The notes: generated from the letters alone by a model not told the origin. DNA of 50,542 nucleotides from DRR723986_6288; one strand, 5' to 3'; positions 8,665 through 14,170 are shown, counted from the stretch's first letter. Numbers and translations: made by a program.

Positions 8665-9612
8665 TTGAACAGCCCGCAAAGCTACCCGCCCTGGATTCCC
8701 AAAGTGCCTCTGTCCAAAATTCTTCCAGCACCCGTCGTTGGTGTGCTCACTGTCACCATGATGAGCCTTTGCATCACTTTCTGGTTCATCGTGATGTTTC
8801 CCTTCATCGTGCTGCGCCTTGTGCCGGTGTACCGGGTGCAACGCGTTGCATCCAATTGCTGCGTGCAAATTGCCACCTGGTGGGTTGGCTCAGACAAGCA
8901 ACTGTACAAACTGCTGCATGGCCAACAAGGACAGGTCGAAATTCATGGCGAGTTCAAACCGCACAGCAGCTATTTGGTGATCAGCAACCACACCGCCTGG
9001 GCCGACATTGTGGTGTTGTTTGACGTACTGCATGGCCATGCGCCTTTTGGTCGGTTCTTTCTGAAGAAAGAACTGATCTGGGTCCCGATTGTGGGTGTCG
9101 TGTGTTGGGCCATGGATTTCCCATTCATGAAGCGCCACAGCCGCGCTGCCATCGCGCGCAACCCGGCCTTGGCCAGCCAGGATCTGGAAACCACCCGCAA
9201 AGCCTGCGCCGTGTATAAGGAAAGCCCGGTCACCGTGATCAACTTTCTGGAAGGTACCCGCTTCACACCCGCCAAAAAAGCCAAAACAAAATCACCTTAC
9301 ACCCACCTGCTGGGCCCCAAGTATGGCGGCTTGTCCGCCTCATTGAACGCCATGGGCGAACAGTTCGCAGGCATGGTGAATGTCACCATTGCGTATGGGC
9401 CCAGCCAGGGAAACATCACCTGGAGCTGGTTGTGCGGAAAGCAACCCCGTATGCAAGTGCATGTCGAAATTCTGCCCATTCCAGCCGACATGATCGCGGG
9501 CGACTTCCGCAACGATCTGGAGTTCAAGAACCGTTTCAAAGCCTGGATCGGTGACATCTGGACCTTGAAAGACCAACGTCTGGAGAATATGCGCCGCAAA
9601 GCCGGGCACTGA
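8665..9612 (+). CDS. PlsC/YihG-like acyltransferase
   Basis: NHTAWAD (HxxxxD), FFLKKEL, FPFMKR, FLEGTRF; TTG start. Confidence 0.88.
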   Translation: MNSPQSYPPWIPKVPLSKILPAPVVGVLTVTMMSLCITFWFIVMFPFIVLRLVPVYRVQRVASNCCVQIATWWVGSDKQLYKLLHGQQGQVEIHGEFKPHSSYLVISNHTAWADIVVLFDVLHGHAPFGRFFLKKELIWVPIVGVVCWAMDFPFMKRHSRAAIARNPALASQDLETTRKACAVYKESPVTVINFLEGTRFTPAKKAKTKSPYTHLLGPKYGGLSASLNAMGEQFAGMVNVTIAYGPSQGNITWSWLCGKQPRMQVHVEILPIPADMIAGDFRNDLEFKNRFKAWIGDIWTLKDQRLENMRRKAGH

Positions 9613-9678
9613 TTGCTGGCCCCGCTTGACAGGTTTGTTAAACTACACTTATTGCAGTTAATCGAATTGATCTCCCCA

Positions 9679-10020
9679 ATGCGTACCCGCTGGTTCCAAC
9701 ACATGCTGATCGCGCTGGCCGTTTTGGCCACGCAATGGGCAGGGCTTGCCCACAGCATTGAGCACCGGGACTCACTGCAGGCCGAGTCGCAATACGGCCA
9801 TTCACACGCACATGGGCACAGCGCTTCCAGCGATATTCTCCATTCTTGCTTGCTGTTCGATGGGCTTGCCAATGCGCAGGCTGCGGTTTCCAATCCACCA
9901 ACAGGCTGCGCTTTGCCGGTGCTGGTCGAATTGGGCAAGCCACATATTGCGACTGAAACACCTCGCAACACACTGTTTGCACAGCGTGTGCGTGTACGCG
10001 ATCCGCCCAGTTTTTCCTGA
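9679..10020 (+). CDS. His-rich secreted leader ORF (DUF2946/CruR-like) with C-terminal RDPP motif
   Basis: Signal-like N-terminus MRTRWFQHMLIALAVLATQWAGLA/H; HSIEH, HSHAHGH and HSCLLFD; ends RVRDPPSFS*; directly upstream of a TonB receptor. Confidence 0.7.
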   Translation: MRTRWFQHMLIALAVLATQWAGLAHSIEHRDSLQAESQYGHSHAHGHSASSDILHSCLLFDGLANAQAAVSNPPTGCALPVLVELGKPHIATETPRNTLFAQRVRVRDPPSFS

Positions 10021-10110
10021 AGTAAACAATCCCCTTTATTTTTTTGTCGCTTTCCGAGCCCTTGTGTGGTCAAAACAGGGCTGGGAGGCGGCGTGCTGTA
10101 TTTCAGGAAA
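10013..10110 (+). promoter_or_regulatory. Long mRNA hairpin sequestering the receptor Shine-Dalgarno
   Basis: UUUCCUGAAGUA (10013-10024) pairs with UAUUUCAGGAAA (10099-10110): 12 bp including one GU. Inner stem 10046-10062 pairs with 10077-10092. Confidence 0.7.
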
Positions 10111-10114
10111 CAAC

Positions 10115-12172
10115 ATGAACAAATCCCAATTTCAGCGCCGTGCCGTGGCGCTGGCCAGCGTGCTTTTCATCGCCCAAACCCAAGCCCTGGCCCAAGAAGC
10201 CCTCCTTGAATCCGTTGTGGTCACCGGCACAGCCGAGCAACCCGAATCCATCACCAAACCTTTTTCCGTGATCACAGCCGATGAGCTGAATGCCAGTGGC
10301 GCCAGCACCTTGGGTGAGGCATTGCGTTACGAGCCCGGCGTTTCCGCCACCGGCTTTGGCCCCAACTCAAGCCGCCCTATCGTGCGCGGCCAAGACTCTG
10401 ACCGCATCAAGATTCTGCGCAATTCTGCTGCCACCATCGACGTGTCTGCACTTAGCTTCGATCACGCTTTACCAGTCGATCCATTTTCCTTGCACCAGGT
10501 TGAAATCCTCCGTGGTCCCGCTGCGCTGGCGTATGGTGGCAATGCGGTCGGCGGTGTAGTCAATCTGGTCGACCAACGCATTGCACGCACGCCCGTTCAA
10601 GGCCTTCAGGGTGAGGTTAACTTGCTGGGCGGTGGCGCTGCGGATCAAACAGCGGGTGGCTTTAAGCTGGATGCCGGTTTGGGGCAGGGGGTTAGCATTC
10701 ACCTCGATGGATTCAAGCGCACCACGCGCGACCTTGAAACCCCCACCTTCACCGACCCCGACGGTGTCACGGGCAGCCGGGTTCAAAACTCCTCCTCGAA
10801 ATCCGATGGTGCAGCCATCGGAGCCTCGTTCCAAACCGGCAATGGCTACATAGGCGTGTCGGCTGAACGTTACAACAACGAATACGGTGTGCCGAAATCG
10901 CTGGATGTACGCATTGGCATGGAAAGCGAGCGCTACGCACTGGAAGGCGAGCAAAACTTCAACAACGCCGCCTTCAAGCAAGTGAAATACAGGCTGGCCA
11001 AAACCGATTATCAACACCAGGAATTTGAAGATGGTGCACCCGCCACCCTGTTTGTAAACGATGGCGTAGACGGCCGCGTGGAAGTGGCCCTGCAGCCATT
11101 TTCCATTGCCGGTTTGAATTTCAACACCAGCACTGGCGTACAGTTTGAACGCACCGACTTTTCAGCCATCGGTGATGAGGCCTTTGTGCCCAGCACCAGC
11201 ACCGACCAGACAGGCATCTTCACCATCTTCCGCGCCAGCCGCGGACAGGAAAATAGCGGAGTGTTCGAATTCGGTCTGCGTGGTGACCAAGTGGATGTGA
11301 ATGCAGCCACCAGTGGCTTATCGCCCTTGAATGGCCCGGTGGCGGGTGCCGGTGTAGATGCGGGTCCTGCCATCAACCGCAGTTTTACTCCCAGCTCTTT
11401 CTCACTGGGTTACACTGCGCCCATAGGCAATGGCTGGTCGCTGGGTGGTTCGGTGTCTCGGGTGGAGCGTGCGCCCTCTAGCTTCGAGTTGTATGCCGAC
11501 GGCGTGCATGTGGCCACAGACGCTTACGAGAAAGGCAATCCGAATTTGCAGGAAGAACGTGGTCGTCACCTCGAATTAACCAGCACTTGGGCACGGGGCG
11601 AATCCAAGTTCAACGCCACAGCGTTTGCAAGCCGGTACAACAATTACATCGCCCTGATTGGGCGTACAGGTGCCAATTCCCAGTTCATTGAACCGGGCGA
11701 GCCTCCCATTCAGGTATTTGATTTCACAGCGGTACCTGCTGAGTTTCAAGGCATTGAGCTCGGTTATCAAACTGCCTACGCAGTGGGTTCTGGCAAATTG
11801 CAGCCCGCAGTTCAGTACGACTTGATCCGTGGAAAACGCACCGATGGGGGAGGCAATTTGCCGCGCATCAGCCCGCAACGTGTGGTCGCCAGTGCAGCCT
11901 ACACACAGGCCGGCTGGACCATCACGCCGGAGCTGATCTGGGTCAGCGACAGCAAAGCTGGTGCAGGTGATACCAAAGTGGAAGGTTACGAACTCGTGAA
12001 CTTGAGAATCGGCAAGGCGTTCACTTGGGGCCGCACAGGTGGTGAAGTGTTTGCCAACCTGCAAAACCTGACCGACGAGCTGGCGTTTTCAGCCACCACG
12101 CTAAACACCGTGCGCGGCTACACTCCGCTGGGCGGGCGCTCCGCGCTGGTGGGTGTGAAACTGGCTTTCTAA
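10115..12172 (+). CDS. TonB-dependent outer-membrane receptor (ZnuD-like metal transporter)
   Basis: Start MNKSQ after AGGA; signal peptide; TonB box ESVVVTG; plug TLGEAL..PGVS..FGP..SRPIVRG, EILRGPAALAYGGNAVGGVVN; ELYADGVHVAT; C-terminal F. Confidence 0.9.
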   Translation: MNKSQFQRRAVALASVLFIAQTQALAQEALLESVVVTGTAEQPESITKPFSVITADELNASGASTLGEALRYEPGVSATGFGPNSSRPIVRGQDSDRIKILRNSAATIDVSALSFDHALPVDPFSLHQVEILRGPAALAYGGNAVGGVVNLVDQRIARTPVQGLQGEVNLLGGGAADQTAGGFKLDAGLGQGVSIHLDGFKRTTRDLETPTFTDPDGVTGSRVQNSSSKSDGAAIGASFQTGNGYIGVSAERYNNEYGVPKSLDVRIGMESERYALEGEQNFNNAAFKQVKYRLAKTDYQHQEFEDGAPATLFVNDGVDGRVEVALQPFSIAGLNFNTSTGVQFERTDFSAIGDEAFVPSTSTDQTGIFTIFRASRGQENSGVFEFGLRGDQVDVNAATSGLSPLNGPVAGAGVDAGPAINRSFTPSSFSLGYTAPIGNGWSLGGSVSRVERAPSSFELYADGVHVATDAYEKGNPNLQEERGRHLELTSTWARGESKFNATAFASRYNNYIALIGRTGANSQFIEPGEPPIQVFDFTAVPAEFQGIELGYQTAYAVGSGKLQPAVQYDLIRGKRTDGGGNLPRISPQRVVASAAYTQAGWTITPELIWVSDSKAGAGDTKVEGYELVNLRIGKAFTWGRTGGEVFANLQNLTDELAFSATTLNTVRGYTPLGGRSALVGVKLAF

Positions 12173-12187
12173 ATCTGCTGGATGACC

Positions 12188-12751
12188 TTAGTGCTTGTGA
12201 TCACCACCGCCGCCATGGCTGTGGTGATCACCTGCCGCGTTTTGACCCGCCAAGGCTTTCACGGGCATTTCAACTTTGCTGCCATCTGCTTTTTCAAATT
12301 GCAGGCTCAATTCAATTTCCTGACCTGCCTCTATCGGTGAAGTCAAAGCCATCAACATCACATGGTAGCCACCCGGCTTCAGTTCCAGCGGCTCACCGGC
12401 TTTCATTTCAATGCGTTCGGCCATACGCATGCGCATGATGTCGCCATCCATTTTCATTTCATGCACTTCGGCAATTTCAGCAGCGGGCGTGGCCACACCC
12501 ACCAAAGCAATCGGTTCCTGACTGGTAATGGTCAGATACGCACCGGTTGCATCCTGCTCACCCACAGTGGGGCGCACCCAGGCGTTTTGAACCGTGATGC
12601 CATCCTGAACTTGTGAGGGCGTTGCCGCCTGCTCCACAGCGGAAGGCGAATCATGCACATGCCCAGCCTCGTCACCATGATCATGGTGTTCTGAACAGGC
12701 CACCAAGGCAAACACCGCAGACACTACGGCCAATTGAGTCATTCTTTTCAC
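12188..12751 (-). CDS. PCu(A)C-family copper chaperone, His-rich lipoprotein
   Basis: Lipobox LVAC; AWVR..GAYLTI; HEM..MRM..LKPGGYHVM; His-rich N- and C-termini. Confidence 0.9.
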   Translation of the reverse strand: MKRMTQLAVVSAVFALVACSEHHDHGDEAGHVHDSPSAVEQAATPSQVQDGITVQNAWVRPTVGEQDATGAYLTITSQEPIALVGVATPAAEIAEVHEMKMDGDIMRMRMAERIEMKAGEPLELKPGGYHVMLMALTSPIEAGQEIELSLQFEKADGSKVEMPVKALAGQNAAGDHHSHGGGGDHKH

Positions 12752-13449
12752 TTCAAACTCCCAAACACTTTCTTAAGCACAGCACTGCCAGCCGCAACGG
12801 GATTGGCACGAATCGCTTTCTCTTCTTCGGCCACCATCAAAAACAACGCATCAAGCGCCTTGTTGGTGATATAGCCTTCCAAGTTGGCGTCTTCAGCCTT
12901 CACCAAGCCAAAGCGGCTGCCCTTTTCGGCCAAGGCATTGTATTGCTGGGCCAAACCCACCTGTGCGGTTTTGCCTTTCACAATCGGCAGCAGCTGAGTG
13001 TACAAATCGGCTTGTGTCTTGCTGCGAAAAAAATCTGTCACTGCGGTGTCACCACCACTCAGTACCTGTTTGGCGTCTTCAACCGTCATGTTTTGGATCG
13101 TTTTCTTCAACACGGCTTTCGCTTGAGGCACTGCGGCTTCTGCAGCACGGTTCATGCTGACCTCCATCTGGTCCAGCTGTGAACCCATGCCCACCATTTT
13201 CAACAAGCCTCTGCTGTTTTCCAGGTACTCCGGCAGCTTGATTCTCACCGCCGGGTTGCCCAAAAAACCATCGGTTTTGCCCAAACTGCCCACCGCTGAA
13301 TCGGCCCCTTTGCTCAGGGTGGTGCGCAACGCAGTCACAGCCTCTTTGCTGGTAATGCCGCTTAAATCCGCGGCGGCCACCGTACCCGCGAAAACCAGGA
13401 CAAGTGAAGCCACAAACAGGGCATGTAAGGAACGCATCAAATAGATCAT
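12748..13449 (-). CDS. DUF4197-family secreted protein
   Basis: Start MIYL after GGAGG; signal peptide; LGKTDGFLGNPAVRIKLP, MNRAAEAA, ALDALF..EEEKAIRANP..LKKVFG. Confidence 0.8.
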   Translation of the reverse strand: MIYLMRSLHALFVASLVLVFAGTVAAADLSGITSKEAVTALRTTLSKGADSAVGSLGKTDGFLGNPAVRIKLPEYLENSRGLLKMVGMGSQLDQMEVSMNRAAEAAVPQAKAVLKKTIQNMTVEDAKQVLSGGDTAVTDFFRSKTQADLYTQLLPIVKGKTAQVGLAQQYNALAEKGSRFGLVKAEDANLEGYITNKALDALFLMVAEEEKAIRANPVAAGSAVLKKVFGSLK

Positions 13450-13474
13450 TTTGGCCTCCCAGCCATCGCGGTGT

Positions 13475-14170
13475 TCAAGAATCGAGTAAACGCGCCTTGC
13501 GTTCCGCCCGAATGAAAATATCAACAGCCTGACCTTTGTTTTTGGCGCCAAGCCGCAAGAATATCTCTTTGATGTGCCCACGCACCGTGTCTGGGCTAAT
13601 GTCCATTTCCCGCGCAACCTCTTTGGCTGACAAACCTTCTGCCGTTTTGCGCATGATTTCCACCTGTTTCCAAGTCAGCGGTTTATCCGACCCCGGGGCA
13701 TAAATGTTGGAATGATATTCGTTGGCAGCCTTTTCCGTGCCTTTGGGTACGTCGTCGAGTACACCGGCCTGTATCAACAGGTTTTGAAGGGCACGGAGCA
13801 GCTCGGGGTAGGTGCTGGCCTTGTTCACATAAAAGTAGCCAGCTCGCTCGGCCTCGCGCGCCAGATGTTTGTCCAGCACACCGGAGCAAATCAGTTTTGG
13901 GCACTGGGGAAACAACACAGCGAAAGTGTTGATGGTGCTTACACCTTTGGAGTCGGGTAGATCCAGGTCAGCGATTACCAAATCTGGGGTGACCTGAACC
14001 CCTCTGGCTTTTTCCATGCTCTCCACCACAATGATCTCGCTTTGATTGACCAGCTGATCAATCATGTCGGCCAACATGATTGAAATCATCGGGTGGTCTT
14101 CAGCGATCAAAATCGTGGGTTTGTCCGTCTGCGAACCCATGTCTGAATGCCCTGTTTTTTCTTGTGTCAT
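13475..14170 (-). CDS. NarL/LuxR-family response regulator (paralog 1)
   Basis: REC (AEDHP, DLDLPD, conserved K) and LuxR HTH (LTWKQVEIM..GLSAKEVA..SPDTVRGH). Confidence 0.9.
   Translation of the reverse strand: MTQEKTGHSDMGSQTDKPTILIAEDHPMISIMLADMIDQLVNQSEIIVVESMEKARGVQVTPDLVIADLDLPDSKGVSTINTFAVLFPQCPKLICSGVLDKHLAREAERAGYFYVNKASTYPELLRALQNLLIQAGVLDDVPKGTEKAANEYHSNIYAPGSDKPLTWKQVEIMRKTAEGLSAKEVAREMDISPDTVRGHIKEIFLRLGAKNKGQAVDIFIRAERKARLLDS

Follow-up and report, generated by a model that had tools for sequence, protein, structure and literature searches.

The stretch DRR723986_6288, a 50,542-nucleotide (nt) piece of a Limnobacter genome referred to below as the window, carries at positions 9679-12172 a small open reading frame (ORF) of 113 codons directly ahead of a gene for a TonB-dependent receptor, and this ORF is considered here as the candidate regulatory leader of the receptor. 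Relatives of the leader in the databases bear this genus name, and the nearest genome compared has 92% of sampled words in common with the window. A preliminary description of the locus had called a 113-aa ORF with a signal-like N-terminus, clusters of His residues and a C-terminal R-D-P-P, and every one of these elements was found where it had been placed. The features of the pair are given below, in which A1 denotes an alignment of 25 leader homologues taken from the 50 relatives (45-98% identity) returned by a database search with the leader protein, and counts out of 19 refer to the distinct versions of the leader end and spacer that form the within-genus RNA set.

9679 to 10020, plus strand: leader (upstream ORF), from the ATG at 9679 to the TGA at 10018-10020, 113 codons plus UGA.
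9679 to 9750, plus strand: export-like N-terminus, residues 1-24, with R2 and R4 followed by hydrophobic MLIALAVLATQWAGLA, as read by eye.
9751 to 9765, plus strand: HSIEH, residues 25-29 (H25-x3-H29), candidate metal ligands, invariant in 25 of 25 sequences of A1.
9841 to 9861, plus strand: HSCLLFD, residues 55-61 (H55, C57, D61), standing in place of the family's CxxC, invariant in A1.
9985 to 10008, plus strand: putative arrest segment R-V-R-V-R-D-P-P, residues 103-110, with R105, R107, P109 and P110 invariant in A1.
10013 to 10024, plus strand: 5' arm UUUCCUGAAGUA, the anti-Shine-Dalgarno (anti-SD), made of the last two codons, the UGA stop and 4 further nt, assigned by folding, with CCUGA in 19 of 19.
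10046 to 10092, plus strand: inner hairpin enclosed by the SD-masking helix, present in the minimum free energy (MFE) and centroid folds.
10099 to 10110, plus strand: 3' arm UAUUUCAGGAAA, which contains the receptor's SD AGGA (10105-10108), with UUCAGGA invariant in alignment A4.
10115 to 12172, plus strand: the regulated gene, a TonB-dependent receptor of 685 aa with Plug and TonB_dep_Rec barrel domains.

Judged from these comparisons, the leader ORF is a real and selected gene, since it is intact and free of internal stops in 18 of 26 Limnobacter genomes, its motifs are invariant, and the stretches between them vary. The same single-protein search found it in 0 of 35 genomes of other genera. 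Residues H25, S26, I27, E28, H29, H55, S56, C57, D61, R105, R107, P109 and P110 never change in A1, and conservation is gathered into three blocks, A-H-S-I-E-H-R, L-H-S-C-L-L-F-D-G and R-x-R-x-P-P-x-F, separated by segments that differ in both sequence and length. The N-terminus begins with positive residues and continues into a 16-residue hydrophobic stretch, where Q19, W20 and G22 are conserved (A1), and the His-rich patch HSHAHGH at residues 42-48 is variable.

More distant relatives were collected by a profile search of 1.84 billion representatives, which returned 93 proteins at E <= 0.001. The wider alignment A2 (44 rows) consists of 40 of these matches, three closer relatives and the window protein, and in each of its rows a hydrophobic N-terminal segment closes with Q-W-x-G-x-x-H-x-x-x-H and is followed by a central H-x-C-x-x-F/L-D and by R-A/G/D-P-P; H29, C57 and both Pro residues are invariant in it, and Q19, G22, H25, H55, D61 and R107 are conserved in at least 90%. 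With the A2 profile, matches were obtained in 96 of the 401 genomes sampled from the order, representing 54 of 167 genera, a tally that takes in two unpublished genomes (G062 and G411). The 29 best loci that it finds beyond the nearest genome also include leaders that bear CxxC, for example L074 (H-S-S-C-L-L-C), L076 and L078-L089. In 11 of these 29, which lie in other genomes of the order, the leader is followed by a homologue of the window receptor.

The export-like N-terminus, a ligand motif at the family distance, an RxPP three codons before the stop and the position as first gene before a TonB receptor together characterize a conserved leader resembling CruR (Bp2923, encoded in cruR-bfrG-bp2921 of Bordetella pertussis; PMC9426467) and CutF (encoded in cutFOG of Rhodobacter capsulatus; PMC9973294, bioRxiv 10.1101/2025.02.05.636593), in agreement with the preliminary description. 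The likeness extends to the structural outline, as the helices and disordered C-terminal half predicted for the leader by AlphaFold2 resemble the model reported for CruR. In a protein atlas, a cluster named after DUF2946 (the family being present on 33% of its members) was among the top three at 0.96. On the basis of these profile comparisons the leader is treated as belonging to a peripheral branch of the CruR/CutF superfamily and not as a member of DUF2946 as Pfam defines it (PF11162).

The RDPP itself occupies 9997-10008, three codons ahead of UGA, and is followed by the tail S-F-S-stop. Among the 25 sequences of A1 the motif reads RDPP in 23, REPP in one and RGPP in one, with a tail of exactly three residues in 24, and in A2 it reads RAPP (25), RDPP (10), RGPP (8) or HGPP (1), one to six residues from the end; the RxPP of CruR is likewise described as lying 3 residues from the C-terminus (PMC9426467). 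The spacing between sensor and arrest motif is equally regular. C57 stands 49 residues before R107 in all 25 sequences of A1 and 46-49 residues before the corresponding Arg across the 44 wider relatives, and in canonical DUF2946 proteins of the same order, 16 of 24 of which carry CxxC, the first Cys precedes the Arg by 46-51 residues, mostly 49, and the second by 43-48. The single invariant Cys of the leader thus occupies the commonest first-Cys distance, with Phe at the second-Cys position and an invariant Asp alongside. The absence of CxxC noted in the preliminary description is borne out, and its proposal of His ligands in replacement is incomplete, as C57 sits at the distance of the first CxxC Cys; by this alignment the sensor site is a modified CxxC and not a pure His site. 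According to Roy et al. (PMC9426467), CxxC and RAPP lie 45 residues apart, within 1-2 residues, in more than 2000 DUF2946 proteins, and shifting this distance by five residues impairs copper control.

RAPP-type arrest has been characterized in vitro. CruR is reported to arrest in the PURE system with the two RAPP Pro codons in the P and A sites, as located by toeprinting, and this type of arrest is described as resistant to elongation factor P and as depending on an irreplaceable Arg (PMC12992588). RDPP is listed in the same source among the most avoided tetrapeptides of bacterial proteomes, and a whole-word literature search for 'RDPP' gave no paper on arrest peptides among the matches listed, although PMC12992588 does discuss RDPP. 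The Arg-rich RVRVR preceding D-P-P may compensate for the weaker Asp variant. In a separate observation, a canonical DUF2946 protein of the same bacterial family in another genus (L020, 1471-1833, plus strand, genome G033; CGYC, PF11162 62 bits) also ends in R-D-P-P, indicating that RDPP has arisen naturally more than once.

The RNA around the junction was folded from 9985 to 10135, and both the 12-bp helix masking AGGA and the second stem in its loop, as drawn in the preliminary description, were confirmed. The outer helix consists of 11 Watson-Crick pairs and 1 G-U pair and ends shortly before the receptor ATG at 10115, and the inner stem (10046-10062 with 10077-10092) is present in both the MFE and the centroid folds. 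The fold has an energy of -47.1 kcal/mol (z = -2.78), equalled by 1 of 200 shuffles, and the real arm pairs with the SD window at -14.7 kcal/mol, a value matched by 75 of 14,434 24-mers (0.5%) from the whole window on both strands.

Within Limnobacter, where a locus search with A1 found 11 loci, 9 of them duplicates of loci already collected, all 19 distinct loci have an unchanged CCUGA:UCAGG core, whose anti-SD side begins 13 nt past the first Pro codon in 18 of them. Most loci also retain the helix UUUCCUGAA:UUCAGGAAA. Over the 12-bp helix, in-register pairing is seen in 86.3% of cells, compared with 34-58% after the partner has been slid by 1-3 columns. The spacer between leader and receptor, 94 nt in the window, measures 77-96 nt in 18 of the 19. 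The leader invariably closes with the codons UUU UCC (or NCC) and a UGA stop, while the upstream R, V, D and P codons vary at third positions. The locus of Limnobacter parvus (L009; L055; 1804-1958, plus strand) has lost one base in the U-run before UCCUGA, which lengthens the ORF by 7 codons, RVRDPPAFPEANNTLF*, and still keeps UUUUCCUGAAG opposite the SD. Since the codons under the arm are synonymously fixed and this locus retains the string despite its frameshift, the letters of the arm appear to be selected as RNA. L009 is also of interest on its own account, as a natural variant that separates the RNA constraint from the coding constraint.

A hairpin lies directly 5' of the SD arm in 15 of 18 MFE folds, the other three segments (L012, L014 and L018) having been cut at a wrong upstream ATG so that the arrangement is not shown there. 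The clades form it from sequences that are unrelated to one another, a point in favour of selection acting on its shape; as these sequences are not alignable across clades, the pair counts given above cover the outer helix only. No Rfam family matches 9500-10300 at E <= 1. A role of the inner hairpin as a terminator was considered and rejected, since the terminator scan called only an unrelated site within the receptor gene.

Beyond the genus, ten loci with an A2-type leader before a homologue of the receptor were compared, nine of them from other genera and one from Limnobacter (L072). In the MFE folds of nine of these, the SD window pairs with nt +2 to +20 past the first Pro codon, and different letters are used for the purpose in different genera, as in CUCCUUGA:UCAAGGG, CCUUCUUU:AAAGAAGG and CCUGGAC...CUGAAA:UUUCAAGUCCAG. 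Duplex energies were arranged in a 13 x 13 matrix, in which cognate arms and SD windows paired with a mean of -11.3 kcal/mol, against -7.3 (standard deviation 3.0) for swapped partners, and the cognate mean was reached in 0 of 20,000 permutations; three of the 13 loci are Limnobacter with shared arms, which lowers the contrast between cognate and swapped pairs. SD masking by the last codons of the leader is, as far as these predicted pairings go, a conserved and co-varying design.

Taken together, the 113-codon ORF is probably (at a probability of about 0.68) a regulatory leader of the CruR/CutF, DUF2946-related kind, in which a stall at R-D-P-P would unmask the receptor's SD and the conserved ligands would sense a metal. 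From the observed sequence features, conservation and pairing we infer the following course for the arrest, its metal dependence, its direction and the part played by the metal, whose identity is taken up below. Leader and receptor would be co-transcribed from a promoter just 5' of 9679. By default 10013-10024 would pair with 10099-10110, the inner hairpin would hold the two arms together, and the receptor would stay untranslated. A ribosome translating the leader would stall with the Pro109 codon (10003-10005) in the P site and the Pro110 codon (10006-10008) in the A site. A ribosome covers about 15 nt downstream of the P-site codon, and the anti-SD, at +10 to +19 from that codon, is within reach of a stalled one. 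The channel of the stalled ribosome, spanning about +1 to +15, would therefore take in UUUCCU (10013-10018), which starts at +10, leaving four weak pairs and exposing the SD for as long as the stall lasts. Since the first Pro codon, 13 nt upstream of the anti-SD, puts the 5' arm inside the ribosome, a stall at Pro-Pro would free the SD; the stall geometry put forward in the preliminary description is upheld by this spacing and is in line with the toeprint reported for CruR (PMC12992588).

Sensing would take place outside the ribosome, through H25/H29 and H55/C57/D61 of the nascent chain, the latter site lying 49 residues before the arrest Arg. Following the logic of CruR, a metal-free chain would stay arrested and the receptor would be made, and a metal-bound chain would fold or be pulled, the arrest would be released, the helix would re-form and the receptor would be switched off. 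This polarity is taken as the most likely because the target is an uptake receptor. Of the mechanism sketched in the preliminary description, the leader, the stall geometry and the pairing of arm and SD, which are co-conserved within the genus and co-vary across genera, have all gained support, and the purely His-based sensor has been given up.

Several results weigh against such a leader or against its family placement. PF11162 (gathering score 23.7 bits) gave no match to the leader protein even at E <= 10 and matched 0 of 18 leader-bearing Limnobacter loci in a genome search, and an hhalign comparison of A2 with 24 canonical DUF2946 proteins of the same order aligned only the 17-column RxPP tail (probability 7.3%, E = 0.0048). 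By Pfam, the link to DUF2946 drawn in the preliminary description is not seen in the leader protein itself and runs through its relatives: PF11162 matches 17 of the 44 A2 sequences, all weakly (best E = 6.4e-4), the Limnobacter paralogue L032 (HxxxH / C-S-L-F-D / RAPP) scores 29.5 bits, above the Pfam cut-off, and CxxC members are retrieved by the A2 profile. The AlphaFold2 model of the leader is of low confidence (mean predicted local distance difference test score 66.8) and contains no folded metal site. The Ala-to-Asp (RDPP) variants of ApdA and ApdP are reported to arrest only partially (PMC12992588). As for the RNA, 5 of the 12 pairs of the outer helix never vary within the genus and 2 show a double change, RNAalifold recovered only an invariant 6-bp core with 0 compensatory pairs within Limnobacter, and the core of the helix is formed by a stop codon and an SD, both constrained for other reasons. 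The comparison within the genus is thus one of co-conservation rather than covariation, so the covariation looked for in the preliminary description is absent there and is met with across genera, where arm and SD do co-vary; even in that set, the MFE fold of the Limnobacter locus L072 (G024) leaves the SD unpaired with the leader end. Finally, any ribosome reaching the stop would briefly open the helix, and plain translational coupling would use the same RNA.

Control at the level of transcription, as in CruR, has to be weighed against this translational switch. A stalled ribosome would shield the transcript from Rho, or the inner hairpin would cause pausing or attenuation, with SD masking being secondary, and such control could also act together with the translational switch. 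CruR, the only characterised leader before a TonB receptor, is reported to act through Rho (PMC9426467), and the roughly 35 nt from 10009 to 10045 are rich in pyrimidines and contain only 2-3 G per 30 nt. U-rich tracts follow the hairpin by about 6 nt in the divergent loci L015-L018, and one RNA library is deeper over 9666-10376 than further into the receptor, a weak hint since contig depth is a poor measure. Against this, the spacer is just 77-96 nt in nearly all loci and mostly folded, compared with 162 nt in CruR, it holds no long C-rich, G-poor tract of the size of a Rho utilization (rut) site, and the inner hairpin was not called by the terminator scan; moreover, the fixed 13-nt offset of the anti-SD and the matching of arm and SD across genera are explained by SD masking and not by Rho. 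We therefore regard transcriptional control of this kind as unlikely.

The ORF might instead encode a working exported metal-binding protein, such as a CzcI-like periplasmic sensor or a chaperone of the receptor, in which case the helix would reflect ordinary coupling and RDPP would be a slow spot devoid of regulatory meaning. Such a protein would suit the export-like N-terminus and the conserved His, Cys and Asp; the NCBIfam search of the leader gave a match to CzcI alone (NF045614), a weak one (E = 0.0073, 16.9 bits against a cut-off of 100), and CzcI is itself counted among the CutF-like proteins lacking a Pro motif, as described in PMC9973294. The family-wide retention of RxPP with its Arg near the C-terminus is hard to reconcile with it, as such motifs are reported to be strongly avoided (PMC12992588), and the fixed Cys-to-Arg distance fits a nascent-chain sensor and not a folded protein. 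In addition, AlphaFold2 (run on the 44-sequence alignment) predicts only two helices, at residues 2-38 and 50-64, and a disordered C-terminal half, and both CutF and CruR are described as undetectable as stable proteins (PMC9973294, PMC9426467). An exported protein in its own right has, on balance, a slim chance. That the ORF and its pairing are the product of chance and serve no function is scarcely credible and is contradicted by the conservation data. A core made of a stop and an SD would stay conserved anyway, and compensatory changes were not seen there, yet 18 genomes carry an intact ORF with unchanged motifs, relatives occur across the order, the codons under the arm are synonymously invariant beside codons that vary freely, swapped arms never equalled cognate ones in the permutations, and equal pairing is found in only 0.5% of random window 24-mers.

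The proposed leader combines traits of systems that are already known. With CruR it shares the position of a small first gene before a TonB receptor and the export-like N-terminus (PMC9426467), and the same regulatory sense would be expected for an uptake gene, the stall corresponding to ON and metal to OFF. It differs from CruR in its sensor (HxxxH plus HxCxxxD in place of CxxC), in its RDPP in place of RAPP, in a spacer of 94 nt instead of 162 nt, in having no PepSY_TM gene downstream, in the use of the stop region of the leader as the anti-SD where CruR acts via Rho-dependent termination, and in escaping detection by PF11162. The RNA switch is closer to that of CutF, for which a stem-loop shielding the cutO SD is reported to be opened through stalling of CutF at a C-terminal Pro motif (PMC9973294), and the Sec-type N-terminus and metal motif of CutF have an export-like N-terminus and a putative metal motif as their counterparts in the present leader. 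CutF, in contrast, has CxxxC and a PPP-type motif, stalls with copper and controls a detoxifying multicopper oxidase, whereas the target here is an importer and the anti-SD overlaps the last codons and the stop at a fixed 13 nt.

ApdA, ApdP and ApcA are described as sharing the Arg-x-Pro-Pro core, carried close to the C-terminal end of a small exported protein whose ORF precedes the gene under control (PMC10951233, PMC12992588); in those systems RDPP is a partly permissive mutant and an avoided tetrapeptide, and here it is natural. Small ORFs ending in RAPP or RGPP have been reported upstream of TonB-related genes throughout Gram-negative bacteria (PMC12992588), and that survey, as described, would not collect RDPP ORFs. 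CzcI of Cupriavidus metallidurans, placed in cluster 20 of the CutF-like sequence similarity network in PMC9973294, is likewise small, exported and His-bearing, its gene stands ahead of a metal transport operon, and it has weak N-terminal similarity to the leader, from which it differs, according to that source, in lacking the C-terminal Pro motif. [quoted passage not shown]

Sensor variants with mixed His and Cys ligands, TonB receptors as targets, stem-loops that shield an SD and the partial permissiveness of RDPP are thus already on record, as far as described in PMC9973294, PMC9426467 and PMC12992588. Particular to this locus, as judged from sequence, are the ligand set, the natural and clade-wide RDPP (a congener, L072/L094, has RAPP at the syntenic locus), the CutF-type RNA switch on a CruR-type target and the fixed 13-nt offset. 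A compact two-gene cassette in a harmless and culturable genus here unites an importer target, an SD switch, a different ligand set and a natural RDPP, and it raises the questions of which metals such leaders can read, how strong the arrest needs to be and whether the 13-nt offset is a design rule; the offset and the cognate matching of arm and SD recur in other genera. Leaders of this sort are under-annotated, because PF11162 misses a branch present in about one quarter of the sampled genomes of the order. If the switch operates as proposed, annotation could recognise them by combining the Cys ruler and the anti-SD with an RxPP close to the stop.

As regards the metal, the receptor has ZnuD as its nearest solved structure (4rdr, 159 bits, E = 1.3e-45), and its best NCBIfam match is the ZnuD model NF038289 at 285.8 bits, below the cut-off of 950; TIGR01778, the OprC/NosA TonB-dependent copper receptor, scores 33.1 bits, below the cut-off of 472. 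By these scores the receptor is ZnuD-like and no ZnuD equivalog, and its database names are generic ('TonB-dependent receptor', 'iron complex outermembrane receptor protein'). Two genes on the opposite strand follow it.

12188 to 12751, minus strand: PCuAC copper chaperone gene, convergent with the receptor and 16 nt past its end.
12748 to 13617, minus strand: DUF4197 gene, after which PCuAC comes last, an order kept through the genus.

PCuAC is the sole metal gene nearby; it is kept in each of the 13 Limnobacter loci whose sequence extends far enough, and it is reported to occur often beside leaders of this type (PMC9426467, PMC9973294). Synteny in Limnobacter extends just as fully to the other genes around it (PhoD, acyltransferase, DUF4197, LuxR-type regulator, patatin), so the adjacency of PCuAC says little about the metal. 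In eight loci of other genera the neighbours of the receptor are unrelated: tRNA synthetase, Fic, STAS, chromate transporter, Sel1, MIP, TPR and Mem_trans. A set of His/His/His/Cys/Asp ligands would suit zinc, and to our knowledge nascent-chain metal sensing has been worked out in two cases only, CruR and CutF, both for copper. Copper and zinc both remain candidates on the present comparisons, and the preference of the preliminary description for Zn, Ni or Co over Cu is a conjecture. A wider proposal is that HxxxH plus HxCxxxD is the mark of a large branch within the DUF2946 superfamily, for the most part lacking annotation, whose members respond to a non-copper metal, with zinc the most plausible choice, and gate ZnuD-like receptors purely at translation initiation, with the stop region as an anti-SD at a fixed distance and a weakened RDPP that is tuned by RVRVR in Limnobacter. 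This proposal is speculative, and the odds appear to lie against it; if true, it would add a second metal specificity and a hard-wired RNA geometry to nascent-chain metal sensing.

The protein encoded by the PCuAC gene is His-rich at both its N-terminal tail HHDHGDEAGHVHD and its C-terminal tail GDHHSHGGGGDHKH. In genome G024, the site syntenic with the window (PhoD-acyltransferase-...-PCuAC-DUF4197-patatin; L094, 2600-5200, also L072) carries a RAPP leader of the form HRVVH / HPCALLD / ARAPPSA*, and its receptor is only 55% identical, against 71-74% for the flanking genes, which would fit either fast divergence or replacement of the cassette.

Upstream of the leader, one element resembles a promoter.

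9626 to 9644, plus strand: promoter-like element, TTGACA at 9626-9631 and extended -10 TGtTAAACT at 9636-9644, conserved across Limnobacter loci in a MAFFT alignment.

A simple sigma-70 scan called no promoter at 9626-9644, and TTGACA lies just 7 nt upstream of the extended -10 (TGnTAnAnT), a spacing too short for a -35. Control by Zur, Fur or a MerR-type regulator is unsupported, as no inverted repeat (seed 6) was found in 9560-9700 and a sigma-70 consensus promoter is lacking. The leader-receptor junction is bridged by contigs of three RNA libraries (X10 record 1, X14 record 15 and X13 record 10), which is compatible with one transcript and no proof of it. The X14 contig, 9666-10376 at depth 44, spans the leader, the spacer and the start of the receptor, with flanking contigs at depth 3-7 on both sides, a pattern that could reflect a transcript start near 9660 plus attenuation; the four RNA runs, being kept as contigs, cannot show transcript ends, strand or level, and the gaps in X14 carry no weight. 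The leader ATG of the window lies 34 nt downstream of the -10 and has no visible SD. In the divergent loci L099, L100 and L101, near 2490-2640, the leader ATG follows the -10 by 6-7 nt, and these leaders may, from this spacing, be leaderless mRNAs.

Two further observations concern the leaders themselves. Mid-leader, a C-rich, G-poor patch at 9889-9905, UCCAAUCCACCAACA, codes for the conserved S-N-P-P; the rut site of CruR is reportedly a C/U-rich patch with Pro codons within the leader. Other Limnobacter species have leaders of the CxxC type that end in RAPP (L103, L104 and L105, in G007, G002 and G025), which precede a secreted protein of about 450 aa with an N-terminal coiled coil, for which Pfam gives only sub-threshold matches (coiled-coil; Sugarporin_N). 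At these three loci the last codons of the leader plus UGA (CUCGCUUGA) are complementary to the stretch directly before the next ATG (UUAAGCGAG).

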